Of a stretch of DNA of 64,000 nt, positions 3,834 through 26,870 are shown one piece after another. Under the pieces are notes generated by a model. The model saw only the letters and a list, made by a program, of their open reading frames with translations. It was not told where the DNA came from and made no database searches. Every line of letters starts with the position of its first letter. The first letter of the stretch is position 1. This stretch comes from Candidatus Doudnabacteria bacterium RIFCSPHIGHO2_01_FULL_46_14 (GTDB lineage: Bacteria > Patescibacteriota > Doudnabacteria > UBA920 > 2-01-FULL-46-14), in assembly GCA_001779925.1 (NCBI GenBank), contig MFEK01000014.1:1011-65010 (forward strand), written 5' to 3'. The translations under genes were made by a program, and so were the position numbers.

Positions 3834-3872
3834 GACTCTCTTGATCTAGTCTCTCTTGAGACAGAAAGCAAT

Positions 3873-3910
3873 CCCCCCTCTTCTTGAAAGAAGAGGGGGG
3901 TTGTTTTTTT
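3873..3910 (+). terminator. Rho-independent terminator after the surface-protein gene
   Basis: Perfect GC hairpin CCCCCCTCTTCTT-gaaag-AAGAGGGGGG (3873-3900) followed by TTGTTTTTTT. Confidence 0.8.
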
Positions 3911-3940
3911 GTAAAAATTTTGTTAGATTATTTATTATAC

Positions 3941-4639: not shown

Positions 4640-4641
4640 AA

Positions 4642-6078: not shown

Positions 6079-7159
6079 GGTAAATCAGTTCTTGATAAAC
6101 ATTTTCTGTTTTTTCAATCATCCTTGCGAGCGTGAACTGCAAGGACTTTTGTTTGGCGTTTTCCCCAAGACGCCGGGCGAGAATAGGGTCGCTTAAAATT
6201 TTGATAACAGCCTCAGCGAGAGCTTGAGGATTTTTTGGCGGCACCAGGATTCCAACCGCAGTTTCCTCCCCCCCTGTGGGGGAGGTTAGGTGGGGGGTAA
6301 GCATCTCAGGAACCCCTCCCACATTCGTAGAAACAATCGGTAATCCCGCTCGCATAGCTTCGAGAATCGTGTAAGGAAAACCCTCTTTGATCGAGGAGCA
6401 GGCATAAATATCAAACGTGGGAAGCAGTTGTGCCGCATCTGATACGCCGCTCACGATTTTTAGCTGCGCATTTGGAAAGTCAGCTTCGACAATTTTAAAT
6501 GCGGCCCGCAGGGTTTTGAGATCTTTGGTCGGATAGTCATGGGCAATCGTGCCGATGGTGATTTTTCCCTCCCCAGGCGTGGGGAGGGTGGTCGTTAGGC
6601 CGGGAGAGGTCGCAATCCCATTATGAATCGTGACGAGCTTTTCCTGCTTGGACAATTTGTCGGCTATAGCTGATTTTCTGTCAAATTCAGAGACAGTAAT
6701 AATTTTATTTCGAAATATTGAAGCTAATTTTTCCGCCCAGAAATAAATTTGTCTCACTAGAAAAGAGTTCGGTTCTAAAAATGCAAAGCCGTGAGCTGTG
6801 AACAAGACTGGTTTTCCAGCCAGCCAGCCTGCAAAACTGCCGATCACTCCGGCTTTGCTCGAGTTGAGATGCACAATATCTGGATCAAGCTCCCTGATCA
6901 GTTTTTTTAATTCCCAAATCGCGAGAAAATCCTTTAATGGGTGAATATTTCTGACGAGATTTCGGACTTTGAAAACCCGATATCCCTGATTCCCCAAAAT
7001 TTTCGACAAAGTTTCCGCATCATTGCCAATGGCTGCGAGGATTTCGTATCGATTCTTGTCCAAATTTGTAGCCAGATCAAAAACATAGCGCTGAGCGCCG
7101 CCCATCTCGCCTTGGGTGATTATTATGAGAATTTTTATCTTTTTGCCATTTTGACTCAT
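6068..7159 (-). CDS. Glycosyltransferase family 4 (GT-B)
   Basis: GT4 C-terminal signature E..GFPYTILEAMRAGLPIVSTNVGGVPEML. Contains two in-frame GC-rich palindromic inserts. Overlaps the downstream GT-C gene by 11 bp. Confidence 0.8.
   Translation of the reverse strand: MSQNGKKIKILIIITQGEMGGAQRYVFDLATNLDKNRYEILAAIGNDAETLSKILGNQGYRVFKVRNLVRNIHPLKDFLAIWELKKLIRELDPDIVHLNSSKAGVIGSFAGWLAGKPVLFTAHGFAFLEPNSFLVRQIYFWAEKLASIFRNKIITVSEFDRKSAIADKLSKQEKLVTIHNGIATSPGLTTTLPTPGEGKITIGTIAHDYPTKDLKTLRAAFKIVEADFPNAQLKIVSGVSDAAQLLPTFDIYACSSIKEGFPYTILEAMRAGLPIVSTNVGGVPEMLTPHLTSPTGGEETAVGILVPPKNPQALAEAVIKILSDPILARRLGENAKQKSLQFTLARMIEKTENVYQELIYHAN
6263..6300. repeat. In-frame GC-rich palindromic element copy within GT4 gene 6068..7159
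   Basis: CCTCCCCCCTGTGGGGGAGGTTAGGTGGGGGG. Its reverse complement matches copy 10741-10770 (CCCCCACCTAACCTCTCCCCTCAAGGGGGAG). Encodes TPHLTSPTGGEE in the gene frame. Confidence 0.7.
6565..6590. repeat. Second in-frame GC palindrome within GT4 gene 6068..7159 (linker region)
   Basis: CCCTCCCCAGGCGTGGGGAGGG. Encodes LPTPGEGK on the minus strand. Confidence 0.6.
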
Positions 7160-7282
7160 GAGCTCAATTATCGTACAATAAATAGTAACTCCATTAGAAA
7201 TCTCTACTGAAATAATAAACTATATTACGTCTTTATGACAGCGCAGATTTCCAAATGGGGTTGAATAATAATCCAAGAAACC

Positions 7283-8113
7283 ATGCATGACAAGCATAAA
7301 ATCGGCATCGTGGGCGGTGGTGTGGTCGGCGGGGCAGTAAAGAACTTTTTCACGGAAGCCAAAGTCTACGATAAATATAAGAACCTTGATTCAATTGAAG
7401 AAGTAGCTTCCGCGCGCTTCATTTTTATCTGCGTGCCAACGCCCTTTGAAAATGGCCTGGATTTATCAATGGTGGACGACGCGGTAGCGAACGTTGTGTC
7501 TCACCTCGCGGACCCGGAAAATCAGCTTGTTGCTATCAAATCAACCGCCTGGCCGGGAACCACGCAAAGCTACCAAGATAAATATCCTGAGGCCAATTTT
7601 GCTTTTAATCCCGAGTTTCTTCGCGATAAAACTGCGAACGAAGATTTTATAAACAATGACCGGCAGATTGTGGGGTATACGAGCAAAACCAAAGACAGCC
7701 CCCTCGTGAAAGAGCTTTTGGAGATTCTACCGCGCGCGCCTTATGAAAAGATCATGCCCGCTGTAGACGCGGAAATGATTAAATATGCCGGCAATACTTT
7801 TTTGGCGCTTCAGGTGATTTTTGCCAATCAGGTTTTTGACATTTGTGAAGCTTCGGGGATCAGCTATGAGCAGGTGAAAGAAGCGGTGAAGGCGGACAAA
7901 CGAATTGGTAAAACGCACTGGGAGGTTTTTCATACAGAATCAAGCCTAGCCGCAAACATCAGTGATGCGTATCGCGGCTATGGAGGGAAATGTTTCCCCA
8001 AGGATATCAATTCGCTTATCCATGAAGGCCAAAAGATTGGAGTGGATGTGTCGCTCTTTGAGGTGGGCCGCGAGGTTAACCTCAAGCTAAATGGAGGCAA
8101 ATATGACAAATAA
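7283..8113 (+). CDS. UDP-glucose/GDP-mannose dehydrogenase-family protein, short form lacking the C-terminal UDP-binding domain
   Basis: GIVGGGVVG NAD fold; IKSTAWPGTT; FNPEFLRDKTANEDFINNDRQIVG; catalytic-Cys motif GYGGKCFPKD. Ends about 25 aa after that motif. Confidence 0.7.
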   Translation: MHDKHKIGIVGGGVVGGAVKNFFTEAKVYDKYKNLDSIEEVASARFIFICVPTPFENGLDLSMVDDAVANVVSHLADPENQLVAIKSTAWPGTTQSYQDKYPEANFAFNPEFLRDKTANEDFINNDRQIVGYTSKTKDSPLVKELLEILPRAPYEKIMPAVDAEMIKYAGNTFLALQVIFANQVFDICEASGISYEQVKEAVKADKRIGKTHWEVFHTESSLAANISDAYRGYGGKCFPKDINSLIHEGQKIGVDVSLFEVGREVNLKLNGGKYDK

Positions 8114-8909
8114 GCCTTCTTTCAAAATCGCCATTGTCGGCGGGGGAGCGGTCGGCAAGGCCATTTCGGCGTATTACGGGCGGGTAAAAATCTACGATAA
8201 ATATCATCCGGTGGATTCGCTTGATGAGGTCTGCGATGCTGATTATATCTTCGTGGCTGTGCCTACGCCATTCGATGATGCCAAAGGCCAGCCGGATTTA
8301 ACAGAAATGGATGATGTTCTGACAGTACTTGCCAAAAATATGAAACGGCCGGCCGAACAGGTGGTAATCATCAAATCAACAGTGTTTCCCGGAACAACCC
8401 ATGGTTATCAGGAGAAATTTCCCAGTCTAAATCTGATTTTCAATCCCGAGTTTTTAACGGAAAAGACAGCGGTTGAAGATTTCGCCAGGCCTGACAAACA
8501 GCTCGTGGGTTTCACATCCAAATCCGTCGAGTTTGCAGAAAAGGCGATGAGCATCCTGCCGCGGGCGCCTTACGAAAAGATCATGCATGCCAGGGCTGCA
8601 GAAATGACTAAATATGTTATCAATACCTACTATGCTTTTAAGGTTATATTCGGTAATTCTATTTATGATCTATGCCAGAAAACCGGCGCTGATTACGATC
8701 AGGTGCGAGAGGGTTTGGTGCGCGATAAGCGAATCATTGATTCTCATTTTGACGTTTTGCACGGCGGATATCGCGGTTACGGCGGCAAATGCCTGCCAAA
8801 AGATGTGAAGACCCTTGCCTGGTTTGGCAGCAAAAACGGCAAGCCCGTAAAATTTATCGAAACTATTATTAAACTGAACGAAAAACTGGCATGGCAAAAG
8901 CACTTGTAA
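8103..8909 (+). CDS. Second tandem UDP-glucose-dehydrogenase-family paralog, also a short form
   Basis: FKIAIVGGGAVG, IKSTVFPGTT, FNPEFLTEKTAVEDFARPDKQLVG, GYGGKCLPKD. ATG at 8103 gives a small overlap with the previous gene. Confidence 0.7.
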   Translation: MTNKPSFKIAIVGGGAVGKAISAYYGRVKIYDKYHPVDSLDEVCDADYIFVAVPTPFDDAKGQPDLTEMDDVLTVLAKNMKRPAEQVVIIKSTVFPGTTHGYQEKFPSLNLIFNPEFLTEKTAVEDFARPDKQLVGFTSKSVEFAEKAMSILPRAPYEKIMHARAAEMTKYVINTYYAFKVIFGNSIYDLCQKTGADYDQVREGLVRDKRIIDSHFDVLHGGYRGYGGKCLPKDVKTLAWFGSKNGKPVKFIETIIKLNEKLAWQKHL

Positions 8910-9805
8910 CCGGCGGCGCGGGGTTCATCGGCTCGCATATCGCGGATCGACTGATCAATGATGGTCATGAAGTAATCATTCTTGATAATTTTTCGACTGG
9001 CAAAAGAGAGAACGTAAATCCGAAAGCCAAACTCGTGGAATGTGATATTGCTGACTATGAGGTGATAGAGCCACATTTTGAAGGAGTAGAAGTAGTGTTT
9101 CATACGGCAGCGTTAGCGCGCATTACACCATCGGTGAAAGACCCCCTTCCTTCGCACGCCGCAAATGCCACAGGCACTCTGAATGTTTTGTGGGCGTCAA
9201 AAAATGCTGCCGTAAAAAAAGTTGTTTACTCCTCAACCTCTTCTATTTACGGCGACCAGGAGATTGAAGACTATCCACTCAGTGAAACTCTGGAGCCGCG
9301 ACCGGGCAGTGCTTATTCAGCGCAGAAATATATGGGTGAGTTGTATTGTAAATTATTTAATAAATTTTACAAGCTTGATACAGCAATCCTGCGGTACTTT
9401 AATGTTTATGGTCCACGCCAGCTCACAGAGGGCGCTTATGCAACAGTTATTGGTATATTTATCAAGCATCGCGAACAAGGGAAACCAATGACTATCGTGG
9501 CTGATGCAGGAGAAAGGCGCAGAGACTATACTCATATTTCAGATGTGGTGGAGGCCAACATTTTTGCATGGCATGCCCAGATTCCCAGAGGTGAATTGTT
9601 TAATATCGGCTGCGGTAAAAATTATAGTGTTAATGAAGTAGCTGCTATGATCGGCGGTCCCACGGAAAAAATTGATGCGCGTCCTTGGGAGTATCAAATT
9701 ACCTTAGCCGACAATTCTAAGGCAAAAGAATTACTCGGTTGGGAGCCGAAAATAAGTTTTGAAGAGGGGATTGCGGAATTAAAAAAAATACACAACCTGG
9801 AATGA
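8891..9805 (+). CDS. NAD-dependent nucleotide-sugar epimerase/dehydratase (extended SDR; UDP-GlcA decarboxylase / 4-epimerase-like)
   Basis: VTGGAGFIGSHIADRL Rossmann motif, catalytic YSAQKYMGE (YxxxK), about 304 aa. Confidence 0.8.
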   Translation: MAKALVTGGAGFIGSHIADRLINDGHEVIILDNFSTGKRENVNPKAKLVECDIADYEVIEPHFEGVEVVFHTAALARITPSVKDPLPSHAANATGTLNVLWASKNAAVKKVVYSSTSSIYGDQEIEDYPLSETLEPRPGSAYSAQKYMGELYCKLFNKFYKLDTAILRYFNVYGPRQLTEGAYATVIGIFIKHREQGKPMTIVADAGERRRDYTHISDVVEANIFAWHAQIPRGELFNIGCGKNYSVNEVAAMIGGPTEKIDARPWEYQITLADNSKAKELLGWEPKISFEEGIAELKKIHNLE

Positions 9806-9806
9806 C

Positions 9807-11015
9807 ATGGATAAGCCGCGCATTTTAATTTTCAGCATTGCATATGAGCCGCTGGTGGGCGGAGCAGAGCTGGCGATCAGGTACATTACTGATCGCATTT
9901 TTGATTATGAGTTTGATTTGATCACCGTGCGTTTCGACCGCGCGCATCCGAAACAAGAAAAAATCGGCAATGTCAATGTTTACCGGGTCGGTTTTGGCTC
10001 CAGACTGGGAAGGCTATTGTATCCGGCTTTCGCCCTTCGCCTCGCAAAAAAACTTCACAGCAAACAGAATTACCAAATCACCTGGGCAATAATGGCTGCA
10101 TACGCTTCTGCGGCAGCGCTCATGTTCCAAAGGCGTTTCCCGACTGTAAAATTTTTATTAACTCTTCAGGAAGGGGATACCATCGAACACATCCACAGTC
10201 GGGTAAAAGGATTTAAAAAGGTTTGGCAACAATCATTCAAAAAAGCTGACTATATACAGGTAATCAGTAAATTTTTGGCCCAATGGGCAGTCAAAGAAGG
10301 CGCGACTTGTCCGGTAGAGGTGGTGCCGAATGGGGTCGACTTAGAAAAATTCAAAATTCAAAACTCAAATGTCAAAATTGCAAATCAAAATTCAAAATTT
10401 ACTATCATCACAGCTTCGCGGTTAGTGCATAAGAATGGAATAGATATTTTGATTCATGCTGTTTCTAAACTTCAGACTTCAAACTTCCAACTTCAAATCC
10501 TCGGCGCTGGGCCAGAAGAAGCAAGATTGAAAAAACTAGCCGCAGATTTGAAAATCGCAGATCGCATTGAGTTCCTCGGCAACATTTCTCAGGAAGAGCT
10601 GCCTAAATATTTGTCGGAGTCGGACATTTTTGTGAGACCCTCACGCTCGGAAGGCTTAGGCACGGCTTTTTTGGAAGCTATGGCTGCAGGTTTGCCGATT
10701 ATTGGAACTCCTGTCGGCGGCATACCTGATTTCCTCCACCCCCACCTAACCTCTCCCCTCAAGGGGGAGAAAAATGCAGAGAAGTCCGGTATTATTCCCC
10801 TCCCTCGAGGGGAGGGTGAACCAAATGGATTATTTTGTAAAGCTGATGACCCCGCTGATCTAGCTGAGAAAATCAAAATACTGATGCAAGATTCCGACTT
10901 GAGAAAGAAATTAGGACAAAATGGGAAAAGACTAGTAGAAGAGCAATATTCCTGGGATATAGTGGACGGGAAGATGAAGGGGATTTTTAGTAAAATTTTA
11001 TATTTTAAATTGTAA
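9807..11015 (+). CDS. Glycosyltransferase family 4 with a 30-aa in-frame repeat-element insert
   Basis: GT4 motif EGLGTAFLEAMAAGLPIIGTPVGGIPDFL followed by the insert HPHLTSPLKGEKNAEKSGIIPLPRGEGEPN, then GLFCKADDP.LAEKI. Low-complexity linker KFKIQNSNVKIANQNSKF. Confidence 0.8.
   Translation: MDKPRILIFSIAYEPLVGGAELAIRYITDRIFDYEFDLITVRFDRAHPKQEKIGNVNVYRVGFGSRLGRLLYPAFALRLAKKLHSKQNYQITWAIMAAYASAAALMFQRRFPTVKFLLTLQEGDTIEHIHSRVKGFKKVWQQSFKKADYIQVISKFLAQWAVKEGATCPVEVVPNGVDLEKFKIQNSNVKIANQNSKFTIITASRLVHKNGIDILIHAVSKLQTSNFQLQILGAGPEEARLKKLAADLKIADRIEFLGNISQEELPKYLSESDIFVRPSRSEGLGTAFLEAMAAGLPIIGTPVGGIPDFLHPHLTSPLKGEKNAEKSGIIPLPRGEGEPNGLFCKADDPADLAEKIKILMQDSDLRKKLGQNGKRLVEEQYSWDIVDGKMKGIFSKILYFKL
10347..10400. 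repeat. A-rich CAAAAT-type low-complexity repeat inside GT4 linker (arm 1 of an inverted pair)
   Basis: AAAATTCAAAATTCAAAACTCAAATGTCAAAATTGCAAATCAAAATTCAAAATTT. Confidence 0.5.
10733..10822. repeat. In-frame GC-rich palindromic element (about 90 bp) within GT4 gene 9807..11015
   Basis: CCTCCACCCCCACCTAACCTCTCCCCTCAAGGGGGAG...CCCCTCCCTCGAGGGGAGGG. Two hairpins. Encodes HPHLTSPLKGEKNAEKSGIIPLPRGEGEP. Confidence 0.75.
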
Positions 11016-11048
11016 TTTTGCATTTTGATTTTTCAATTTTGAATTTCC
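11013..11048. repeat. Inverted copy (about 85% identical) of the 10347-10400 repeat, intergenic
   Basis: TAATTTTGCATTTTGATTTTTCAATTTTGAATTTCC is the reverse complement of AAATTCAAAATTGAAAAATCAAAATGCAAAATT. Confidence 0.5.
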
Positions 11049-11049
11049 T

Positions 11050-12723: not shown

Positions 12724-12806
12724 ACCGCGTTAGAAATTTTATTCAGCATATACTCAAAAATTTATGATTACATCAGCTATTAACCAAAAGGATTTCTAAC
12801 GGGGTG
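12721..12806 (+). repeat. MITE-like gene-junction element J1 (TIR ACCGCGTTAGAAAT / ATTTCTAACGGGGT)
   Basis: Left end TGAACCGCGTTAGAAAT supplies the stop of 11050..12723. Right end AAGGATTTCTAACGGGGTGAAAA supplies the SD and GTG start of 12804..13913. Confidence 0.8.
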
Positions 12807-13913
12807 AAAATTTTAATTTGTACCGGGATTTTTCCTCCTGACGTGGGCGGTCCGGCAACCTATTCGAAAATTCTTGCAGAAGAACTGGTTAAACATGGCC
12901 ACGCGGTTAAGGTAATTACTTATGCTGGTCGTATTTATCCCCCTTCCCTTGAGAGAAGGGGGACTCTGGGAGAGGCGGATTTTGAATTGATCCGAATTCA
13001 ACGCAGCCGATTCAAACCTCTGCATTATTTCAGATTTTACCGTACCGTTCTGAAACACGGCCGAGACGTTGATGTGATTTACGCTCAAGGTCCGGTTTCA
13101 GAAGGATATCCGGCTTGTCTGGCGGCTAAGAAATTAAATAAACCACTCGCAGTAAAGATAACAGGAGATTACTCCTGGGAGCAGGCGATGGGCCGGGGTT
13201 TAACCGACGAGCTGATTGATGCGTTTCAGAACCTCTCTTTCTACCCTCCAAGAATCCAACGAATGCGCAGAATCCAGAAACTAGTTTGCGATTATGCAAA
13301 TATAATAATCACGCCCTCAGAATATTTAAAAAAGGTTGTTAGCGGTTGGGGGGTAGATCCGGGGAAAATTAGAGTTATTTATAATTCGGTAGAGATGCCA
13401 GAATCAATAATTACGAATCAAGAATCAAGACAAAAGCTAGGAATCCCCAAAGACAAATTTCTAATAGTCTCTTCTGGACGCAATGTACCGTGGAAAGGAT
13501 TTGAATTATTGAAGGAAGTTATGGCAGAATTACAGAAAGATCATCCTGAGATGATGCTGAAAATCCTGCATGATGCGCCGCGCGGGCTGCTCCATGAATA
13601 TATCCGGGCGGCAGATCTGTATGTGCTAAACACCGGCTATGAGGGGTTATCCAATACTCTCGTGGAAGTTCTGCGCCATAGGATACCTGTAATCACCACC
13701 AACGTCGGCGGCAACCCGGAGATAATCAGGGATGGCGAAAATGGGCTACTCGTGGAATACAATAATATAGAGCAGTTGAAAGACGCAATTTTGAGATTGT
13801 ACTCTGACAAAGAATTACGTAATAAATTACGTAATTCTTCCGGCCTGGAAAAATTCGATCTCGCGCAGATGATCAGTAAAACCGAGGAGGTTCTCAAACA
13901 ATGCGCGTCCTAA
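12804..13913 (+). CDS. Glycosyltransferase family 4 (GTG start from junction element)
   Basis: GT4 C-terminal domain (EGLSNTLVEVLRHRIPVITTNVGGNPEII.DGENGLLV). N-terminal-domain loop carries an in-frame GC palindromic insert (IYPPSLERRGTLGEADFE). Confidence 0.8.
   Translation: MKILICTGIFPPDVGGPATYSKILAEELVKHGHAVKVITYAGRIYPPSLERRGTLGEADFELIRIQRSRFKPLHYFRFYRTVLKHGRDVDVIYAQGPVSEGYPACLAAKKLNKPLAVKITGDYSWEQAMGRGLTDELIDAFQNLSFYPPRIQRMRRIQKLVCDYANIIITPSEYLKKVVSGWGVDPGKIRVIYNSVEMPESIITNQESRQKLGIPKDKFLIVSSGRNVPWKGFELLKEVMAELQKDHPEMMLKILHDAPRGLLHEYIRAADLYVLNTGYEGLSNTLVEVLRHRIPVITTNVGGNPEIIRDGENGLLVEYNNIEQLKDAILRLYSDKELRNKLRNSSGLEKFDLAQMISKTEEVLKQCAS
12949..12987. repeat. In-frame GC palindromic element within GT4 gene 12804..13913
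   Basis: CCCCCTTCCCTTGAGAGAAGGGGGACTCTGGGAGAGG. Encodes PPSLERRGTLGEA. Confidence 0.6.
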
Positions 13914-16634: not shown

Positions 16635-16717
16635 ATCCCGTTAGAAATCTATTTTTCCACAATAATTGCAAATTTTTATGAACTCTGCTATTAACTATAA
16701 GGATTTCTAACTGGGTG
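16632..16717 (+). repeat. MITE-like gene-junction element J2
   Basis: TGAATCCCGTTAGAAAT ... AAGGATTTCTAACTGGGTGAAAA. The interior shares AAATTTTTATGA..CTATTAAC..AAGG with J1. Confidence 0.8.
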
Positions 16718-17878
16718 AAAATTTTATTTGTGGCTTACAAATTCGGCACAGAAAAAGAAATCGGGGAGCATCTCGGTACCTACCATTATTTTATTGAAAC
16801 CCTGCGGCGCATGGTTGCCCTGGGGCATGAGGTTTCTGTTGCTGCGCCGTGGTTGTCTTTTAGGCGACGCGGCAGCGAGGATGTTGATGGGGTAAAAGTT
16901 TTGCGTTACTATCCACCTCTGTTTAACAGGCCGAAATCCCTGCTCGTAAACTGGATATTGCGTTCTTGGTATATTATGGCGACCAGCAGACGAATCCTCG
17001 ACCTTGATCGTAAACAACAGTGGGACGCGATTTGCGTGTGGCAGGCGCGCGAGACCGGCTTTGCCGTGGCGAAAATTGCTTCAAAGCTGCGCGCCCCTTT
17101 TATTTTCCGCCAGATCACGGCCTGGCAATGGCATTTTGAACGGATGAAGCGAGACCGGAAATTTCAGGAAAAATTCGCCAAAGCCATTTATGCTTCTGCC
17201 AAACAAATTATTTTTGTAAGCCGCGCTGCCGCTGATGCGGAACGAGCCTTGGGCTTGCCGGAGGAAAAAATCCGTATTATGGCCGTGGCCATTGAAACCG
17301 ACCTATTCAAGCCTGGAAATCAAAGCAAAAACGGCAATACCATTTTATTTGTCGGCCGAATCAATTTTGCGGAAAAAGGCATTGGCTATTTGCTGGATGC
17401 CATGCCAGAAGTACTGCGCCGACTGCCGGCAGCAAAGCTGGTGATTGTCGGCGGTGGTGGAGAGTCGCAGCGTTTGCTTGCTCAAATAAAAACCCTTGGT
17501 ATTGAAAATTCCGTGCGGGTTGTCGGGGAAAAGCCATTCAACGAGCTTCCTCAGTATTTGAACGCCTCTGATGTGATGGTTGTACCCTCCATATGGCTGG
17601 AGGCTTTCGGCCAGGTTACGATCATCGCCATGGCTTGCGGTGTGCCTGTGGTGACCTCTGACATTGGCGGAAGCGTCGAGATAAACTTGGACGGGCAAAC
17701 AGGCTTTGTGGTTCCCCGGGCTGATTCACACGCGCTTGCCGAGGCGATCCTCAAGATTTTGCGCGATCCGCAGCTTGCCAAAACGCTCGGGCAGAATGCC
17801 CGCAAACGGGTCGAGGAACATTACAGTTACGAGGTTCTGGTTAATAAATTTTTGAAACTGATTGGCGAACTCAAGTGA
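16715..17878 (+). CDS. Glycosyltransferase family 4 (GTG start; no palindromic insert)
   Basis: EAFGQVTIIAMACGVPVVTSDIGGSVEINLDGQTGFVVP. Canonical GT4 loop, useful for comparison with the insert-bearing paralogs. Confidence 0.8.
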   Translation: MKILFVAYKFGTEKEIGEHLGTYHYFIETLRRMVALGHEVSVAAPWLSFRRRGSEDVDGVKVLRYYPPLFNRPKSLLVNWILRSWYIMATSRRILDLDRKQQWDAICVWQARETGFAVAKIASKLRAPFIFRQITAWQWHFERMKRDRKFQEKFAKAIYASAKQIIFVSRAAADAERALGLPEEKIRIMAVAIETDLFKPGNQSKNGNTILFVGRINFAEKGIGYLLDAMPEVLRRLPAAKLVIVGGGGESQRLLAQIKTLGIENSVRVVGEKPFNELPQYLNASDVMVVPSIWLEAFGQVTIIAMACGVPVVTSDIGGSVEINLDGQTGFVVPRADSHALAEAILKILRDPQLAKTLGQNARKRVEEHYSYEVLVNKFLKLIGELK

Positions 17879-17975
17879 ATCCCGTTAGAAATCAGAAGCA
17901 GAAAATTAGAGGTAAATTATGATTAATTATGAAATGGATTCAGAAGAAAAAAAGACCCGAATTTCTAACGGGGTG
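17876..17975 (+). repeat. MITE-like gene-junction element J3
   Basis: TGAATCCCGTTAGAAAT ... CCGAATTTCTAACGGGGTGAATAAA. Confidence 0.8.
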
Positions 17976-19702: not shown

Positions 19703-19735
19703 TTACGTAATTAATTACGTAATCAGTTACGTAAC
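19703..19735. promoter_or_regulatory. Three tandem TTACGTAA palindromic half-site repeats (candidate operator)
   Basis: TTACGTAA at 19703-19710, 19715-19722 and 19727-19734, immediately upstream of a small AbrB/MazE-like ORF. Confidence 0.4.
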
Positions 19736-19745
19736 TGGAGATAAG

Positions 19746-19922
19746 ATGGCAAGTAGAAAATTAGCCGACAAAAATGTAAGGAAACTCAGCCGCATGAGAG
19801 GTAAGTCTCTTGGTCTTACTCTTCCGATTGAGTTAGTCAACGGAATGGGATGGAAGGAAAAGCAGAAGGTGGTTGTGAAAAAACAGGGCAGGCATTTGAT
19901 CATCAAGGACTGGAAAGCGTAA
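19746..19922 (+). CDS. Small AbrB/MazE/SpoVT-like DNA-binding protein (58 aa), not in the ORF track
   Basis: MASRKLADKNVRKLSRMRGKSLGLTLPIELVNGMGWKEKQKVVVKKQGRHLIIKDWKA. Swapped-hairpin-like pattern (K.G.SL.LT.P.E......G.....V.V...G..L.I). Confidence 0.4.
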   Translation: MASRKLADKNVRKLSRMRGKSLGLTLPIELVNGMGWKEKQKVVVKKQGRHLIIKDWKA

Positions 19923-20096
19923 TGAAACAAAATTGCTCAAACCGTTTGCTGCCAATAAACTTGATTTTATGAACAACCTTAGAAAAAAACTTCAGTATAA
20001 ATCAAAACGAGAGCCAATTACATAAGGACGAAACCTCATGAACCTGCTCTCATCGTGAGCATGATATATTAGCAAAATTTTTATAGATTGTCAAGC

Positions 20097-21284
20097 ATGA
20101 AAATTTTTTACATTGCCAACGCCAGGATACCGACCGAAAAGGCGCACGGGATTCAGATAATGAAAATGTGCGAGGCTTTCGCGCGTCTGGGGCACGACGT
20201 AAAGCTGATAATTCCGAGTCGCGTTTCCCATATTGAGGAAGAGGCATTCGCGTACTATGGTATGACGAAAACTTTTGAGATTGTTTATTTGCCGTCGCTC
20301 GACCTCATCCGCTGGAGCGGATGGATTCCGAAAATATTTGCTTATTTGCAGAATTGGTCGTTTAGTAATTCCGTCCAGAAATTTTTGGATGACAATCAGG
20401 CAGATTTGCTTTACACCCGTGATGAGCTGACCGCCCTGTCATTGCCTAGAAACCTGGAAATTATTTTGGAAGTGCATAATGTTTCGAGGATTTTGCGAAA
20501 TAATACAGAGCGATTAAATAAACTGCAAAAAATAATTTCCATCACTGCGGGCCTGAAAAATGAACTGATGCGGCTGGGGTATGAGGCAAATAAGATTCAA
20601 GTCTTACCGGATGGGGTGGATTTGAAAAATTTCACCCTCCCCCAACCCCTCCCTGCCTCGCCGGCAGGCGGGCCCTCAAGGAAGGGGAATTCCTCCCCCT
20701 TGAGGGGGGAGGATAAAGGAGGGAGTGGTAAAAGAACTATAATGTATACAGGCAATTTTTTTGCCTGGAAAGGAGTCTACGTTTTAGCCGAGGCCACAAG
20801 ACTCTTACCAGAATATCAATTTGTATTTGTCGGCGGCTCGCCAGACGAACAGGAAAAATTTCAAGATTATATAAAAAGACAGTCATATAACGATCGTGAT
20901 ATAGCTGTCAAGAATATTAAGTTAACTGGACACGTACCGCATAATCAAATTCCTGAATATTTATCGCATGCAGATGTGCTGGTTCTGCCCAACTCGGGCA
21001 AAACCCCGATTTCAAGATATTACACCTCGCCTATGAAAATGTTTGAATATATGGCGGTTGGAAAGCCAATAGTGGCCTCGGACATGCCGTCGATTCGGGA
21101 AATCCTTAATGAATCTAATTCGATTCTTGTGAAACCAGACGATCCGCAGGCGCTGGCTCAGGGAATAAAAAAAGCGATCGAAGATTCTGAATTGGCAAAA
21201 AGAATCGCCGCACAAGCCTCGACAGACGCAAAAAAATACACCTGGCAAAACCGGGCAAAAGCCGTCATTGATTTAATGTCATAA
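20097..21284 (+). CDS. Glycosyltransferase family 4 with in-frame GC palindromic insert in the interdomain linker
   Basis: ATG at 20097 (MKIFYIANARIP). Insert encodes TLPQPLPASPAGGPSRKGNSSPLRGEDKGGSGK. C-terminal GT4 motif SPMKMFEYMAVGKPIVASDMPSIREIL. Confidence 0.8.
   Translation: MKIFYIANARIPTEKAHGIQIMKMCEAFARLGHDVKLIIPSRVSHIEEEAFAYYGMTKTFEIVYLPSLDLIRWSGWIPKIFAYLQNWSFSNSVQKFLDDNQADLLYTRDELTALSLPRNLEIILEVHNVSRILRNNTERLNKLQKIISITAGLKNELMRLGYEANKIQVLPDGVDLKNFTLPQPLPASPAGGPSRKGNSSPLRGEDKGGSGKRTIMYTGNFFAWKGVYVLAEATRLLPEYQFVFVGGSPDEQEKFQDYIKRQSYNDRDIAVKNIKLTGHVPHNQIPEYLSHADVLVLPNSGKTPISRYYTSPMKMFEYMAVGKPIVASDMPSIREILNESNSILVKPDDPQALAQGIKKAIEDSELAKRIAAQASTDAKKYTWQNRAKAVIDLMS
20631..20730. repeat. 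In-frame GC-rich palindromic element (about 100 bp) within GT4 gene 20097..21284
   Basis: TTCACCCTCCCCCAACCCCTCCC...CCTCCCCCTTGAGGGGGGAGG. Begins with the same TTTCACCCTCCCC as the intergenic copy at 26828. Confidence 0.75.
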
Positions 21285-21309
21285 AATTGGTAGAATAAAA
21301 GCCGAATTC

Positions 21310-22410
21310 ATGCATCAATACGGCATTGATATAAATACGCTGGAGAAATTCATTACCAAGCCCCAGGCAGAAGAAAAGGACTGGGGACGGTTTTGTGTGG
21401 CTGTGGATTTGCCGGAGTACCGCCTCGAGCAGTATGAGATTTCTGCCGGTAAATCTTGCGAGCTGCAGACTGCACGCGGGCATGAGGTCACGATTTTTGT
21501 GGAGAGCGGAGTAGTGCGCGTGGACGACATAGAACTTACAGCACAGGAACTGGTGTCCAGTGAAGGCAGGCTTGTTATCATGGCCAAGGAAGACTCGATT
21601 GTCTACGCGTTTCATGGGCCGGCAGAGTATGGCAGCGTGTATCATCAGAAATCTAAGACTTCTGATTTTCGTGACAAATATTGGGGCTCGATCGAAACTA
21701 TTGTGAGTCGCGATTACGCGGCCAAGAGGCTAGTCGTAAGAAAAGAGCGGCACGCGAGTTTTGAGTACCACTGCCGCAAATTGGAAAGTTATTTTATTCA
21801 TTCGGGTAAACTACTTCTCCGTAATAGAGCGGGTCGCGGCGAGGATCGGTATTTTGAACTCGAAAAAGGGACTGCGACGATCACGCCGCCGGGACTCATG
21901 CACCAGCGGGGGGGATTGGAGGACACTGTTATCATTGAAATCTCCACGCGCGACGAGGACGGTGATTCGTATCTTGTGGAGGACGGCGCAAAACTACCCA
22001 TGCCCCGCCTCCGCCAAGGCTACGGCGGGCTGGATCGAGGTTCAGAGGAATATAAGGGCCGCAGGATTTGTTTTGATATTGATGGAGTCCTGCGCACTCA
22101 GACAGACGGCGATTATGAGAATGCCCAGCCAATCAAAGAGGCGATTGATTTCATAAACAAACTTTATAACGAAGGCTTTTGGATCACCCTTTATACCTCG
22201 AGCTTTATGGGACGTGCCAAAAATGATCAAAAAGCCGCGTACGAGGCAGGATTTGCATTTAATAAAAAACAGCTGGCTGGTTGGGGCGTAAAATACCACG
22301 AGCTGTTTATGGGCAAGCCGCCGACAGATTTGTTAATCGATGATCGGGCGTTATTTTACAATCAAGATTGGGCAGTGATTGAAAAGGAAATTCGGAGCAA
22401 GCTTCAATAA
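21310..22410 (+). CDS. Bicupin - HAD-like phosphatase fusion protein
   Basis: Two cupin-type beta-barrel segments (…GHEVTIFVESGVVRVDD…; …SYFIHSGKLLL…GTATITPPGLMHQRGG…). C-terminal HAD-type domain with CFDIDGVL (DxDG) and GKPPTDLLIDDRA. Confidence 0.5.
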   Translation: MHQYGIDINTLEKFITKPQAEEKDWGRFCVAVDLPEYRLEQYEISAGKSCELQTARGHEVTIFVESGVVRVDDIELTAQELVSSEGRLVIMAKEDSIVYAFHGPAEYGSVYHQKSKTSDFRDKYWGSIETIVSRDYAAKRLVVRKERHASFEYHCRKLESYFIHSGKLLLRNRAGRGEDRYFELEKGTATITPPGLMHQRGGLEDTVIIEISTRDEDGDSYLVEDGAKLPMPRLRQGYGGLDRGSEEYKGRRICFDIDGVLRTQTDGDYENAQPIKEAIDFINKLYNEGFWITLYTSSFMGRAKNDQKAAYEAGFAFNKKQLAGWGVKYHELFMGKPPTDLLIDDRALFYNQDWAVIEKEIRSKLQ

Positions 22411-22411
22411 C

Positions 22412-23110
22412 ATGAATTTAGAAGAAGCCAATATTTTAAAAATTCTAGTCTGCGAGCAAAACCGGCGGCTCCCGGAAACCGGTCTCGTTATTTTGACTGA
22501 AGGCAATGTTTCGCAGATTTCCTCTAATCGCAGTTTCATTGTCATCAAACCTTCCGGCGTGGAATATCATGATCTGGCCCCGGAGAAAATGGTAGTGGTG
22601 GATATGTCTGGGAAGGTTGTTGAGGGGGATTTGCGTCCATCTGTTGACACCTTTACTCATCTGGAAATTTACAAAAAATACTCGCATATCGGGGGCATTA
22701 CCCATACCCACTCCTCGTTTGCCACAGTGTTCGCGCAGATGCACAAACCAGTGCCGGCTTATGGCACTACTCACGCTGATGCTTTTGGCCAGGAGATTCC
22801 GGTGACGCGTCCGCTTTCCGATGACGAAATCACCGGCAATCTGGAGATCAACACCGGTCGGGTCATTTGCGAGGTTCTCGATCAGCGTCACGCGCGATGC
22901 GTGCTGGTGGCGAGCCACGGTCCGTTCGTGTTCGGCAAAGACGCTAAAGAGTCAGTTGACTGCGCGGCCATGGCCGAACAGGTGGCTATGATGGCCATCC
23001 TCGGGCAGTATCGCAGCCCGATTCAAGAAGCGCTTCTCAAAAAACATTTCGAGCGCAAGCACGGCAAGGATAAATATTACGGGCAACAGTTGGACCATGA
23101 CAAAATATAA
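22412..23110 (+). CDS. Class II aldolase/adducin family protein (L-ribulose-5-phosphate 4-epimerase-like)
   Basis: ATG at 22412. VIKPSGVEYHDL....VVVDMSGKVVEG; SVDTFTHLEIYKKYSHIGGITHTHSSFAT zinc-ligand histidine pattern. Confidence 0.7.
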   Translation: MNLEEANILKILVCEQNRRLPETGLVILTEGNVSQISSNRSFIVIKPSGVEYHDLAPEKMVVVDMSGKVVEGDLRPSVDTFTHLEIYKKYSHIGGITHTHSSFATVFAQMHKPVPAYGTTHADAFGQEIPVTRPLSDDEITGNLEINTGRVICEVLDQRHARCVLVASHGPFVFGKDAKESVDCAAMAEQVAMMAILGQYRSPIQEALLKKHFERKHGKDKYYGQQLDHDKI

Positions 23111-24100: not shown

Positions 24101-24101
24101 T

Positions 24102-24842: not shown

Positions 24843-24844
24843 CT

Positions 24845-25741: not shown

Positions 25742-26585
25742 GGTTATTGTTGTCGGTGACCTCATTTTAGACATCTATCACTATGGCCATCCCCTCAAAG
25801 ATTCAGTTGAGGGGCTTCTTGCTATTGGTGAGGATAAAACTGAAGCATCTTTTGGCGGCGCAGGGCTATTGGTCCGCAATATTGTCCAGCTCGGCGGGCG
25901 GGTTGATTTCGTTACTGTTATTGGAAATGATGAGTTTGGCGACCTCGCGCAGAAATTTATCCGTCAAAACTTAAAGAAAACATTTTTTGTCGAAAATGGC
26001 CGCAAGACTACGGTCAAAGAGAGGTTTGTGGTGAATGGCAAAAAGGTTTTGAAATGGAATCATTTGGATAATCGGCCGCTCAATCCCGCAATTCAGAACA
26101 GAATTTTGCTTTACCTGGCAAAAAATATTAGAGGTTACGATAAACTTATCATTTCTGACTATCGCCATGGCCTCATTTCGCAGAGCTTTGCCCGCGCTCT
26201 GGTTGCACTCGGCAAAAAATTTAAAAAGCCGGTTTATGTTGATTCGCAGATCGCTCAAAGCAAAGGCAACCATGCCTGGTATAAAGGTGCTGATTTAATG
26301 TGTTTGAATGAATTGGAAGCAAAAAGCATCAAGGATGAGATCGACATTCCCAACATAATTTTGAAGCTAGGATCAAAAGGCTCGCTCGCAGTCATTGAAG
26401 GAAAGAAAATCCGCACACCGGCATTTAAGGTAAAGGTTGTAGACACTACTGGCGCTGGTGATGCGTTTTTTGCAGCGCTTGTGATCTCGAATTTTCCGCC
26501 AACTACCTCTGACTTGAAACGCGCCAACAAATGGGCAGCTTTGACCACAACAAAAATGGGCACCGAGCTTCCAAAAACCAGATAA
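25734..26585 (+). CDS. PfkB-family carbohydrate kinase, HldE-domain-I-like (heptose 7-phosphate kinase candidate)
   Basis: VIVVGDLILDIYHYG (compare HldE VMVVGDVMLDRYWYG). GGAGLLVRNIVQLGG. C-terminal VDTTGAGDAFFAAL anion-hole motif. Confidence 0.75.
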   Translation: MPKVIVVGDLILDIYHYGHPLKDSVEGLLAIGEDKTEASFGGAGLLVRNIVQLGGRVDFVTVIGNDEFGDLAQKFIRQNLKKTFFVENGRKTTVKERFVVNGKKVLKWNHLDNRPLNPAIQNRILLYLAKNIRGYDKLIISDYRHGLISQSFARALVALGKKFKKPVYVDSQIAQSKGNHAWYKGADLMCLNELEAKSIKDEIDIPNIILKLGSKGSLAVIEGKKIRTPAFKVKVVDTTGAGDAFFAALVISNFPPTTSDLKRANKWAALTTTKMGTELPKTR

Positions 26586-26633
26586 GAATCTGATATAATT
26601 GACAATCAAAACATTCAGGATTAGGATAATCAT

Positions 26634-26807
26634 ATGTCAGAAGACAAGCTGAGCAAAATTTTAGAAGTCGTTATCCACCTAAAAGATAAGATAGATAACG
26701 ATATGGTGACGAAAGACGAATTCGCAGAATTCAGGAGCGAGAACACTGCTCATATTGACGGTTTTATTAAGCTACATCAAACACTGGATACGTTGCGGGC
26801 GGGTTAG
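26634..26807 (+). CDS. Hypothetical small protein (57 aa), not in the ORF track
   Basis: ATG preceded by AGGA. MSEDKLSKILEVVIHLKDKIDNDMVTKDEFAEFRSENTAHIDGFIKLHQTLDTLRAG. No recognisable family. Confidence 0.25.
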   Translation: MSEDKLSKILEVVIHLKDKIDNDMVTKDEFAEFRSENTAHIDGFIKLHQTLDTLRAG

Positions 26808-26870
26808 GTAGGGGTGGTGAAAAGTTTCACCCTCCCCTTACCCCTCCCCTCAAGGGAGGGGAATAATGAG
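26803..26870. repeat. Full-length intergenic copy of the GC-rich poly-C/poly-G palindromic element
   Basis: GGGTTAGGTAGGGGTGGTGAAAAGTTTCACCCTCCCCTTACCCCTCCCCTCAAGGGAGGGGAATAATGAGG. Nested palindromes GGTGAAA/TTTCACC and CCCCTCCC/GGGAGGGG. The track ORF 26814..27005 is merely its translation. Confidence 0.75.

Follow-up and report, generated by a model that had tools for sequence, protein, structure and literature searches.

A GC-rich repeat of about 40 nt inserted in frame in GT4 glycosyltransferase genes of a Doudnabacteria genome, and its link to DUF559 nuclease genes elsewhere

In the 64,000-nt stretch of Doudnabacteria DNA analysed here (the window), we interpret the GC-rich palindromic sequences of the GT4 glycosyltransferase genes as non-autonomous copies of a dispersed repeat of about 40 nt, present as singles and as tail-to-tail doublets of 90–100 nt. 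We give this explanation, including an inferred mobilisation step by a DUF559 nuclease, a probability of roughly 0.8. The observation behind the original prediction is confirmed, and its reading of the sequences as in-frame insertions is supported. The repeat family and its link to DUF559 appear to be undescribed so far; in-frame palindromic repeats as such are already known as Rickettsia palindromic elements (RPEs) and intragenic REPs.

The consensus unit reads (T)CACCCTCCCC-TAA-CCCCTCCC-loop-GGGAGGGG(A): a C-rich box of 10 nt is followed by a TAA-like spacer and then by a C/G hairpin of 8 bp. In the window, a CACCCCCACC / CCTCTCCCC variant occurs beside the consensus type, with arms such as CCTCCCCC, CCCTCCCC, TCTCCCC and TCCTCCCCC. 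The literal CCCCTCCCC...GGGGAGGGG build first proposed for the copies is not borne out, the search for CCCCTCCCC-N(1-30)-GGGGAGGGG giving 0 matches; the arms are variants. The sequences first cited are present at or near their stated positions. A script searched for stems of at least 6 with a loop of 3–12, where an arm had to be all pyrimidine or all purine and each arm had to contain 5 or more G/C. It found 8–9 distinct perfect poly-C/poly-G hairpins, whereas 30 first-order Markov simulations gave a mean of 0.33 and a maximum of 2. All of the observed hairpins locate within 3.8–27 kb, and the same script found none at 27–64 kb.

A covariance model trained only on copies from other phyla (R1) recognised five full-length units and one half unit in the window (Table 1). 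Apart from the intergenic one, all family units are in frame, within three GT4 genes. Six copies had been presented as one family: four have R1 support, but 6567-6588 (E 0.17) and 12938-12963 (E 0.35–0.67) cannot be assigned because their match is confined to the hairpin. The copy cited at 12949-12987 is in fact the hairpin 12938-12963 with a G-box at 12968-12975, and since GT4 12804..13913 carries only this unassignable hairpin, the claim of copies in four GT4 genes holds for the other three. The hairpin at 3873-3900, not among the copies first cited, is an ordinary terminator-like hairpin with a T-run after it.

Table 1. Host genes, repeat copies, R1 matches and hairpins of the window (positions in nt)
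Feature	Position	Strand	Composition or basis	R1 bits	R1 E
GT4 glycosyltransferase	6068..7159	-	363 aa, intact; PF13439 and PF00534 flanking inserts		
GT4 glycosyltransferase	9807..11015	+	402 aa, intact; Pfam		
GT4 glycosyltransferase	12804..13913	+	369 aa, intact; Pfam		
GT4/GT1-family glycosyltransferase	20088..21284	+	398 aa, intact; Pfam		
Single full-length unit	6263-6301	-	box ACCCCCCACC, TAA, hairpin CCTCCCCC-ACAGG-GGGGGAGG	25.3	1e-6
Hairpin-only copy	6567-6588		CCCTCCCC-ACGCCT-GGGGAGGG on gene strand; perfect 8-bp hairpin; membership ambiguous		
Tail-to-tail doublet	10733-10822	+	left 10733-10772 forward; right half 10798-10816 + TGAA, reverse		
Full-length unit	10733-10772	+		37.6	1e-10
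Hairpin-only half unit	10798-10816			21.6	2e-5
Hairpin then G-box	12938-12975	+	TCCCCCTTC-CCTTGAGA-GAAGGGGGA then GGGAGAGG; 9-bp hairpin; membership ambiguous		
Tail-to-tail doublet	20629-20729	+	left 20629-20687 forward; right 20690-20729 reverse		
Full-length unit	20629-20672	+		27.3	3e-7
Full-length unit	20690-20729	-		30.1	4e-8
Intergenic head-to-head pair	26803-26863	+	reverse box-only remnant GGGTTAGGTAGGGGTGGTG 26803-26821 facing canonical forward unit 26824-26863		
Full-length unit	26824-26863	+	best copy of window	62.3	1e-18
Box-only remnant	56504-56519	-	TTATCACCCTCCCCT (minus strand); match at box positions only	14	0.006
Hairpins	3873-3900, 6265-6285, 6567-6588, 10752-10770, 10798-10816, 12938-12963, 20691-20713, 26841-26861		script		
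Weak hairpin	25791-25814		script		

The reading frame is kept in all four host ORFs, their inserts being flanked by GT4 Pfam domains, and the insert peptides quoted earlier are correct. In GT4 6068..7159, the unit 6263-6301 runs forward relative to the gene; the peptide that it encodes, TPHLTSPTGGEE, lies in the loop following GGVPE, where the L002 orthologue is shorter by about 10 residues and L004 has a diverged orthologous insert. The hairpin 6567-6588 (RNA fold −19.8 kcal/mol, z −2.5) encodes TLPTPGEG within the interdomain linker of the same gene, which is not longer than the linker of L002. At GT4 9807..11015, the peptide encoded by the doublet 10733-10822 (−38 kcal/mol, z −2.5), HPHLTSPLKGEKNAEKSGIIPLPRGEGEP, extends the loop following GGIPDFL to 29 residues, against a basal 4; the paralogue 16715..17878 reads NLDGQTGFVVP at the homologous site, as originally noted. 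Meanwhile, the sequence 12938-12975 encodes YPPSLERRGTLGE in an N-domain loop of GT4 12804..13913. At this site L002 is about 10 residues shorter, L001 has another hairpin and L004 another repeat type.

In GT4 20088..21284, whose paralogues have short linkers, the doublet 20629-20729 encodes FTLPQPLPASPAGGPSRKGNSSPLRGEDKGGSG within the interdomain linker. A nested 20-nt GC palindrome (20654-20673) interrupts the hairpin of the left unit, and the doublet folds into an outer box-box stem with two inner hairpins (−58.8 kcal/mol, z −3.0). The intergenic pair 26803-26863 (−36 kcal/mol, z −3.0) has the geometry of the DUF559-flanking repeats of other genomes, but no gene lies between its halves. A small ORF (26635..26808) stops at a TAG within the remnant.

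The AlphaFold model of GT4 9807..11015 (pLDDT 86.6, pTM 0.84) adopts the GT-B/GT4 fold, with TM of about 0.8 to sucrose-phosphate synthase and MshA and about 0.75 to BshA. Insert residues (about 310–339) have block-mean pLDDT values of 50–68 (blocks from 311, 321 and 331), whereas the flanking blocks reach 88 and 95. In this predicted structure, the GGxPE-loop insert is a low-confidence loop within a confident GT-B fold.

The insertion interpretation survived the comparison with orthologues that could have refuted it. After GGxPE, 87 of the 107 scorable orthologues of GT4 9807..11015 have the basal 4 residues, and only about 9 have Pro/Gly/Glu-rich inserts of such kind. No copy is present at any of the insertion sites in the syntenic Doudnabacteria locus of GCA_001777695.1 (L002/L003). 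In the codon alignment, the empty site reads FL-TEGE-TGLF, and the doublet boundaries are common to the window, L001, L130 and L131 while the doublet is absent in L002; this is therefore an old insertion kept in a subclade, not a recent polymorphism.

One unit gives three peptide readings in different genes (HPHLTSP.., SPSPNPS.. and TLPQPLP..). With a dispersed element read in different frames across genes, conservation lies in the DNA and not in the peptide. In some interdomain linkers the element substitutes for sequence and is not a simple addition, and neither a target-site duplication nor a defined insertion mechanism is visible in the insert/empty-site alignments. Orthologous inserts in four sequences all retain the hairpin despite differing arms; third-codon identity is 0.46–0.83 in the insert against 0.34–0.49 in the flanks, with the insert higher in 4 of 6 pairs. 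These features, known from sequence alone, hint at a nucleic-acid constraint or at re-conversion. Our findings support the idea that the GT4 segments are in-frame insertions and not ancestral protein.

In GT4 genes, which occupy 14% of the window, there are five insertion events; the remaining coding sequence, about 45 kb, has none (binomial p of about 3e-4, our own estimate). A tolerance filter alone may not fully explain this strong bias. That the inserts diversify surface-glycan enzymes is speculation.

The family is not confined to this lineage. Loci that match the degenerate 21-mer CACCCYCMCCYWACCYCTCCC in species-representative genomes number at least 119, against about 9 expected by our own estimate with equiprobable bases. 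Matches come from Dehalococcoidia, Planctomycetota, Nitrospirota, Desulfobacterota, Alphaproteobacteria, Acidobacteriota, Chlamydiota, Atribacterota, Saccharibacteria, Uhrbacteria, Doudnabacteria and others. The window-type variant occurs in at least 116 metagenome contigs with GC contents of 27–74%, and the family is known from about 20 phyla, with all three frames read. Other organisms carry in-frame copies in Pfam-confirmed UvrA, CarA, Maf, PmbA/TldD, UvrD-like and GT4 proteins, the CarA copy being interdomain, between CPSase and GATase. A further in-frame copy lies in a long ORF upstream of carA, which we read as CarB without a family search. Copies in Doudnabacteria are likewise not limited to GT4, as CarA and CarB of locus L077 also have them.

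Some copies flank DUF559, the gene of a small Vsr-like PD-(D/E)xK nuclease, as inverted repeats with the box inward and the hairpin outward. Among the matches listed, this gene directly adjoins the element at 5 of 119 loci for the 21-mer and 4 of 116 for the window variant. At four of the five pattern-selected loci, the gene has a reverse copy immediately upstream and a forward one immediately downstream, as it also has at all three independent loci chosen solely via DUF559 protein sequence. The C-terminus reads through into element-encoded ..HPPLTPPIKGGE, ..PLPSREG or ..SPSPNPSHQGRG in 86 of 109 scorable DUF559 homologues, drawn from the 120 nearest homologues of one Scalinduaceae protein and not from a random PF04480 sample. 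Solo copies far outnumber the flanking ones and are intergenic or occasionally in frame in conserved proteins.

The DUF559 HMM found no match in any of the six frames of the window, and Pfam scans of 38 window ORFs (30 larger ORFs beyond 27 kb included) gave no DUF559, RAYT or transposase. Intragenic doublets are tail-to-tail with the box outward, in contrast to the head-to-head DUF559-flanking pairs, and given this opposite orientation they did not arise from a DUF559 cassette by simple deletion.

We propose that copies entered the GT4 genes of a large glycan-synthesis cluster in a Doudnabacteria-like lineage, and that at least one did so before the window lineage parted from L001, L130 and L131. 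A surviving copy would preserve the reading frame by its net length, have C-rich/G-rich arms without a stop codon in the frame used, encode flexible Pro/Leu/Ser...Gly/Glu/Arg peptides, and sit at a tolerant site, such as an interdomain linker, the loop after GGxPE or an N-domain loop. We infer that GT4 loops would be hit owing to selection, not targeting. Copies may be mobilised in trans by a DUF559 nuclease whose gene, not established for this genome, would lie outside the window; it would nick or cut at the element, with copying through repair to follow. This mobilisation is an inference from the flanking, which is just as compatible with DUF559 genes homing into elements that were already there.

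It is possible, if doubtful, that the element spreads otherwise and that DUF559 is a selfish homing-type nuclease gene parasitising the centre of head-to-head pairs. The gene always locates between two inverted copies with boxes inward, as would be expected of a gene that had inserted into a palindromic target; gene-less head-to-head pairs occur (window 26803-26863 and L027, for example), and Vsr-fold homing endonucleases are known (I-Bth0305I, PMC3239194). However, equal flanking geometry counts as mobilisation evidence for REP/RAYT (PMC3733652), and no alternative mobiliser recurs near the copies, since all-against-all ORF clustering for the 119 loci listed returned only generally abundant families. 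Unlikely, but worth weighing, is that the hairpins are kept as RNA or DNA structures in the glycan operon, with a secondary role for repeat origin. They would then slow ribosomes at domain boundaries, act in mRNA stability or processing, or modulate expression as G-quadruplex, i-motif or triplex. The very stable folds (−38 to −59 kcal/mol, z −2.5 to −3.0), the hairpins and synonymous-site identity of the orthologous inserts, the frequent position exactly at domain linkers (GT4; CPSase/GATase of CarA) and the G-rich strand GGG-A-GGGG-TTA-GGGG-A-GGG speak for such a role. In addition, box and pyrimidine arm form a mirror repeat, and the variable base of the box covaries with the stem pair (83/1/5/36, Fisher 8.5e-25), although this association may reflect merely two or three subfamilies. 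Yet the majority of orthologues fare well without the insert, linkers and loops tolerate any insertion, and the element is also found in unrelated genes and between genes across the phyla; no family copy resembles an intrinsic terminator, and no expression or structure-probing data stand behind a structural role.

The poly-C/poly-G runs might also be contingency tracts that switch GT4 on and off by slippage (phase variation), as in surface-glycan genes of some pathogens. Homopolymer runs do exist within the GT genes; the longest, at 6268-6274, is C7 when read on the plus strand and G7 on the gene strand, and there are several further runs of 5–6. These are short for efficient slippage, however, and embedded in a conserved hairpin-plus-box unit that is also intergenic and in housekeeping genes of many phyla. 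All four GT4 genes are in frame and no length variants were seen, population data being outside our scope, and we regard switching as very improbable. Hardly credible at all is the idea that no insertion took place and that the segments are ordinary low-complexity linkers or loops, evolved in place or ancestral, or assembly artefacts. GT4 linkers differ in length and sequence in all lineages, and two cited copies match merely as generic hairpins; but five units fit R1 with E of 1e-6 to 1e-18, copies in non-homologous contexts have more than 40 nt in common (20629-20687 and 26824-26863), the empty site is the majority state, and the orthologous inserts are found in independent NCBI, ENA and Logan assemblies.

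Yeast mitochondrial GC clusters are GC-rich palindromic mobile clusters that occur in frame in var1 and show presence/absence polymorphisms. They are organellar, belong to a very AT-rich genome and have sequences unrelated to the present family, and we know of no DUF559 link for them.

RPEs (Ogata et al., 2000) are palindromic repeats in frame within protein genes, according to the summaries in PMC10969869 and PMC3733652; the former gives about 150 bp and ten families, reported from Rickettsia genomes. Both repeats are short palindromes, in frame in unrelated, apparently functional genes at fold-compatible positions, with intergenic copies too, and in both the added peptide is a by-product of a DNA element. 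In contrast to RPEs, the present family has a ~40-nt unit, 90–100-nt doublets, C-/G-tracts, three frames and a range of about 20 phyla at GC contents of 27–74%, and its inverted copies flank a nuclease gene; no comparable RPE gene is mentioned in PMC10969869 or PMC3733652. The parallel with RPEs, drawn earlier, holds for the in-frame behaviour only, and the repeat is not an RPE family member.

In-frame intragenic REPs have been reported, frequently as dimers that encode 20–30 residues, and DNA-repair genes (uvrA and uvrD, for instance) are frequent hosts (PMC3733652, Di Nocera et al., 2013). REPs and REPINs resemble the present family in their 20–40-nt hairpin units, singlets and inverted doublets, and in the inverted copies that bracket a small nuclease-type gene (RAYT) greatly exceeded by solo copies; our family is also found in UvrA and a UvrD-like protein. 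It differs from REPs by the lack of a GTAG or CGTC end tag, by a non-palindromic C-rich box beside the hairpin, and by conservation across phyla, whereas REP families are mostly species- or genus-specific. The flanked gene is the Vsr-like DUF559, whereas RAYT is a HUH Y1 transposase. MITEs such as Correia/NEMIS, ERIC and Nezha, among others (reviewed in PMC10969869), are likewise small, non-coding and of inverted symmetry, and they can give rise to in-frame fusions upon landing in genes. Here, unlike in MITEs, we saw no target-site duplication and no parent insertion sequence with a transposase, and the singlet falls below the 70–300 bp of MITEs (PMC3733652). For a Vsr-like nuclease as part of a mobile element, the I-Bth0305I family is a precedent (PMC3239194); its enzymes are encoded in introns or inteins of phage genes, whereas our DUF559 genes are free-standing, with hairpin repeats on both sides.

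Elsewhere in the window, the box-only remnant 56504-56519 is intergenic, past the helicase-like ORF 54777..56441.

The window has a GC content of 47%, and the closest homologues of its proteins belong to Candidatus Doudnabacteria (Patescibacteria/CPR group). Glycan-synthesis genes make up its bulk. The genes that host the inserts (6068..7159, 9807..11015, 12804..13913 and 20088..21284) are assigned to GT4/GT-B by both Pfam signature domains, PF13439 and PF00534 or PF13692. In Foldseek, the model of GT4 9807..11015 reached TM scores of ~0.8 with sucrose-phosphate synthase and MshA and ~0.75 with BshA, and its fold is GT-B. Meanwhile, we notice two tandem short paralogous ORFs of 272–276 aa (7283-8113 and 8091-8909). 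The same pair is present at L004 and L131, two syntenic loci from other genomes, where the counterparts carry UDP-glucose/GDP-mannose dehydrogenase domains (the window pair itself was not scanned), and a single copy is found in L002. L002/L003 is a Doudnabacteria genome free of the repeat copies described below; a few kb upstream of its syntenic glycan cluster (5628-5978) lies a gene for bAvd, an accessory protein of diversity-generating retroelements, which is missing in the corresponding part of the window.

The original prediction held that poly-C/poly-G palindromes are inserted in frame into four GT4 genes of the window. The cited repeats do exist, and the observation is real. A script for perfect hairpins with GC-rich homopyrimidine or homopurine arms found 8–9 distinct sites, all confined to 3.8–27 kb, against 0.33 expected from Markov simulations, so the hairpins are non-random. 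The longest homopolymer run in the inserts is 7 (6268-6274), to be set against the long coding tracts of variable length that define phase-variable contingency loci. The literal motif proposed for the family, CCCCTCCCC...GGGGAGGGG, has no match in the window, as the arms are variants, and we replaced it by the script and then by a covariance model. One pair of the positions given for the copies is offset: the hairpin placed at 12949-12987 is in truth at 12938-12963. The four host ORFs are all intact, GT4 domains flank the inserts on either side, the quoted peptides are correct, and the in-frame reading is borne out by intact ORFs that contain units recognised by the model.

Alignment of the window copies revealed that four of them share more than the hairpin: on its 5' side, a C-rich box is followed by a TAA-like spacer (CACCCyCmCC-yWA-CCyCTCCC-loop-GGGAGrGG). 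The consensus of the element is (T)CACCCTCCCC-TAA-CCCCTCCC-aTCAAg-GGAGGGG(A), with a subfamily CACCCTCACC/CCTCTCCC/GGGAGAGG, and in alignments of 94 and 45 copies the first bases are (T)CACCC and the last ones GGGG(A)A. The covariance model, R1, was trained on 45 foreign copies from the species scan described below, and the window was searched with filters off (see the table). One unit measures ~40 nt, with a hairpin of 8 bp. Based on the positions and strands of the R1 units, the inserts of GT4 9807..11015 (10733-10822) and GT4 20088..21284 (20629-20729) are both tail-to-tail doublets of 90–100 nt with their boxes outward. The predicted folding energies are -38 kcal/mol (z -2.5) for the former and -59 kcal/mol (z -3.0) for the latter, whose left unit contains a nested 20-nt GC palindrome. 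Rfam gave no family at gathering thresholds for the window and 12 related loci, only noise up to E 5.

Positions of repeat copies, glycosyltransferase genes and related loci. R1, covariance model of the element; L and P numbers, loci and GT4 orthologue proteins from other genomes or metagenomes.
Feature	Position or locus	Strand	R1 score
Full-length unit, intergenic	26824-26863	+	62 bits, E 1e-18
Full-length unit	10733-10772	+	38 bits, E 1e-10
Full-length unit	20690-20729	-	30 bits, E 4e-8
Full-length unit	20629-20672	+	27 bits, E 3e-7
Full-length unit	6263-6301	-	25 bits, E 1e-6
Hairpin half only	10798-10816	-	21.6 bits, E 2e-5
Box-only remnant TTATCACCCTCCCCT, intergenic, after 554-aa helicase-like ORF	56504-56519	-	14 bits, E 0.006
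Hairpin-only match, family membership not assignable	6567-6588	.	~9-10 bits, E 0.17
Hairpin-only match, family membership not assignable	12938-12963	.	~8-9 bits, E 0.35
Eight GT4/GT1-type glycosyltransferases	6-21 kb		
Two PMT-type membrane glycosyltransferases	window		
Five GT2 genes, one GT9, sugar epimerases, dehydratases, aminotransferases	>27 kb		
DUF559 genes bracketed by inverted copies, box inward, hairpin outward	L118:2484-2893; L054:4456-4873; L093:392-831; L125:2963-3396; L127:2957-3369; L128:2955-3375		
Syntrophobacterales loci with the longer repeat	L012, L044, L059, L061, L076, L078, L080, L086, L088, L095		
GT4 orthologues with other repeat peptides	P0003, P0016, P0017, P0023, P0026, P0029, P0045, P0071, P0073, P0103, P0108		
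GT4 loci with other repeat peptides	L001:11599-12672; L004:14198-15337		

The extra peptides could be ancestral protein sequence instead of insertions, and the orthologues of GT4 9807..11015, which are many (48–67% identity), bear on this question. The loop after GGxPE has 4 residues in 87 of the 107 that could be scored; it is longer in the other 20, about 9 of which carry Pro/Gly/Glu-rich inserts of the element kind. At the syntenic locus L002/L003 (GCA_001777695.1), neither a hairpin nor an R1 match occurs in 21 kb, and two of its GT4 proteins have a shorter GGxPE loop, while a third has a shorter N-domain loop. The insertion reading is supported by these comparisons. A codon alignment revealed one doublet with identical boundaries in the window and at the loci L001, L130 and L131, and the empty site FL-TEGE-TGLF at the same position of L002. 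The insertion is therefore older than the split of these four lineages. The hairpin is kept in all four inserts despite differing arm sequences, and the third-codon identity is 0.46–0.83 in the insert versus 0.34–0.49 in the flanks (small samples). Structural constraint, re-conversion by other copies of the element, or renewed insertion may account for this. In some linkers, the element substitutes for existing sequence without lengthening the protein.

The loop and linker placement was also confirmed. We ran AlphaFold with the orthologue alignment on P0001, a cluster representative that differs from the window protein by 2 residues, both outside the insert (pLDDT 86.6, pTM 0.84). In this GT-B model, the mean pLDDT is 62, 50 and 68 in the insert blocks that start at residues 311, 321 and 331, respectively, as opposed to 88 and 95 in the flanking blocks; the interdomain linker is also low (61–75). 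The same linker and loops of orthologous GT4 proteins hold other CPR repeat types, such as ..SAQGGSASGG.., ..DPSTSSGQA.. and ..EAKQSQ..IASS..PRND... These sites thus seem to serve several unrelated repeat families, which argues that they accept many kinds of insertion.

Outside the window, one genome per species was scanned with the degenerate 21-mer taken from the alignment above. At least 119 loci matched, compared with ~9 by chance (our own estimate, assuming equiprobable bases), and they span ~20 phyla, including cultured Sphingomonas and Smithella among the matches listed. The variant of the window type (CCCCCACCTAACCTCYCCCC) is present on at least 116 contigs from metagenomes, whose GC content spans 27–74%; none of the matches listed is embedded in a GT4 gene. 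Only 5 matches were found among 2.9 million viral contigs, so phages are not the main carriers of the element. In Syntrophobacterales, the element forms part of a longer repeat, AGGGGyTGGGGGAGGGGGTCGTAAGTACTTGAAAATTCAA-element-CTCACGTCCGGCTC..., which measures at least 130 nt and has many copies per genome. At the contig end of one such locus, L044, a copy just past the match at 7222-7242 runs into GGGGGGGGGGGGTGGGGGCCCCCCCC, apparently an artefact of sequencing or assembly.

The copies in the window are read as HPHLTSPLKGE and TPHLTSPTGGE in frame 1 and as FTLPQPLP in frame 3, where CAA takes the place of TAA, and frame 2 is used outside the window (SPSPNPS..GRG). The conserved entity is the DNA, not the peptide. 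In other organisms, in-frame copies lie in Pfam-confirmed UvrA, CarA (between its two domains), Maf, PmbA/TldD, a UvrD-like helicase-nuclease and a GT4 of Uhrbacteria, and thus the family is not limited to GT4 genes. Housekeeping genes are also hit in the Doudnabacteria lineage itself: in nzgw378 (locus L077), a full doublet occupies the CarA interdomain linker (3896-3984), and a reverse-orientation copy (1191-1225, DSPPSEEGLGVV) lies in frame in a long ORF preceding carA, an ORF that we take to be CarB without a family search. This ORF and the right halves of the window doublets are read through, so that our early assumption of stop codons in every reverse-orientation copy was wrong. Within the window, all five insertion events in coding DNA fall in GT4 genes, which are 14% of the sequence, and none in the other ~45 kb of coding DNA (binomial ~3e-4, our own estimate).

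DUF559 is among the commonest nucleases of unknown function in environmental genomes. When all 3216 ORFs from the 119 matched loci were clustered, one small family stood directly against the element, and Pfam identified it as DUF559 (PF04480), a Vsr-like PD-(D/E)xK nuclease. The same clustering showed no recurrent transposase near the element, only ABC ATPases, sensor/response regulators and similar genes besides DUF559. In 4 of the 5 element-adjacent DUF559 loci, the gene has a reverse copy immediately before it and a forward copy immediately after it, and three further independent loci, picked by DUF559 protein sequence alone, have the same arrangement. Of the 120 nearest homologues, 109 could be scored, and in 86 of them the C-terminus of DUF559 runs into an element-encoded peptide (e.g. 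..CLNHPPLTPPIKGGE); several homologues begin within the inverted copy. A DUF559 gene is adjacent in 4 of the at least 116 metagenome contigs with the window-type variant. The window has no DUF559 gene; its head-to-head pair at 26803-26863 is arranged like a DUF559 cassette without a gene inside. At this pair, a 57-aa ORF (MSEDKLSKILEVV..., 26635-26808) stops at a TAG within the reverse box remnant, GGGTTAGGT. Either truncation of the gene by the element or a stop codon provided by it is possible (homologues were not compared).

Our findings show that the inserts are in-frame members of a dispersed cross-phylum repeat family, located in loops and linkers and missing from most orthologues, and that this family brackets DUF559 genes elsewhere. 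By analogy with REP/RAYT, we infer that the DUF559 nuclease would act on the box-hairpin, through a nick or cut followed by repair-mediated copying, and would mobilise solo copies in trans. Purifying selection would then spare only frame-keeping, stop-free copies in tolerant loops. It cannot be excluded that DUF559 genes instead home into pre-existing elements, a reading under which the bracketing copies would have been there before the gene. The reading we put forward, with a probability of roughly 0.4 and thus tentatively, is that the window inserts are solo copies of an unrecognised pan-bacterial mobile system with DUF559 in a RAYT-like role, whose box-hairpin ends are conserved over 27–74% GC and which repeatedly seeds in-frame peptides in GT4 (in CPR), UvrA, CarA/CarB, Maf and TldD. 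These ends may form a triplex or a G-quadruplex, for which there are no structure data. In alignments A5 and A6, the box CCCTCMCC and the pyrimidine arm are mirror images of each other, and such a mirror sequence is what a parallel third strand would need to form C+.G-C and T.A-T triplets. A G-quadruplex motif is matched by the G-rich strand, GGG-A-GGGG-TTA-GGGG-A-GGG. The variable box position covaries with the stem pair (83/1/5/36, Fisher 8.5e-25), which may reflect just two or three subfamilies.

In-frame palindromic repeats are established for the Rickettsia RPEs (PMC10969869, PMC3733652), and in-frame REPs with GTAG or CGTC tags are known from genera such as Opitutus and Thauera, with uvrA, uvrD and recBCD as frequent hosts (PMC3733652, PMC10969869). 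The proposed likeness to RPEs stands for the behaviour, as the element is a repeated palindrome in frame within unrelated protein genes and is inserted where the fold tolerates it, in a surface loop or linker. It fails for size and taxon: an RPE is ~150 bp and reported from Rickettsia, whereas our short element has a CPR host and extends over many phyla. Like REPs and REPINs, the element is a short imperfect palindrome (20–40 nt) found as singlets and inverted doublets, but its 94- and 45-copy alignments lack the GTAG/CGTC end tag, and it flanks DUF559 instead of RAYT, the HUH tyrosine transposase flanked by REPs. No RAYT was found in the 38 window ORFs scanned with Pfam (the remaining ORFs were outside the scan). 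As regards MITEs, which are defined by terminal inverted repeats plus a target-site duplication, the doublets have inverted ends, and no duplication is visible at the compared filled and empty sites, where the orthologues are only 55–67% identical and the boundaries are blurred. By these defining tests the element falls outside RPE (size, taxon) and REP/RAYT (tag, HUH transposase), yet it behaves like both.

In the open-access literature, among the papers listed and judged partly from titles and abstracts, we found none linking DUF559 to flanking repeats; none was found there for substrings of the element sequence or for palindromic in-frame repeats in CPR bacteria. The cross-phylum element and its DUF559 association thus appear undescribed, and it is these that carry the main interest, the GT4 inserts alone being of moderate interest. 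They show that selfish DNA within protein genes, known from Rickettsia and a few REP-rich Proteobacteria, also reaches the streamlined CPR/Patescibacteria, and offer a route by which the many GT4 paralogues of CPR gain new surface loops. If DUF559 mobilises or homes into repeats, it would have a testable function, and a second REP/RAYT-like system would exist. The repeats also generate spurious Pro/Gly-rich ORF extensions, and recognising them would improve annotation. They probably break metagenome assemblies too, since many DUF559 homologues are on contigs of <2 kb.

Mimicry of the anti-Shine-Dalgarno (CACCTCCTTA vs TCACCCTCCCCTTA) and of telomere-like TTAGGG was dropped as mere resemblance. 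A terminator function of family copies was likewise rejected: in a scan of 3500-23000, no family copy was flagged as an intrinsic terminator (GC hairpin with a T-run), and only a non-member fits. This site, 3873-3900, comes right behind the 1272-aa surface-protein ORF (15..3833), and its 12-bp C/G stem is followed by TTGTTTTTTT. We regard it as an ordinary terminator-like site whose composition is similar to that of the element (R1 E 0.37). At 26824-26863, outside the range of the scan, the hairpin is followed by AATAATGAGG.
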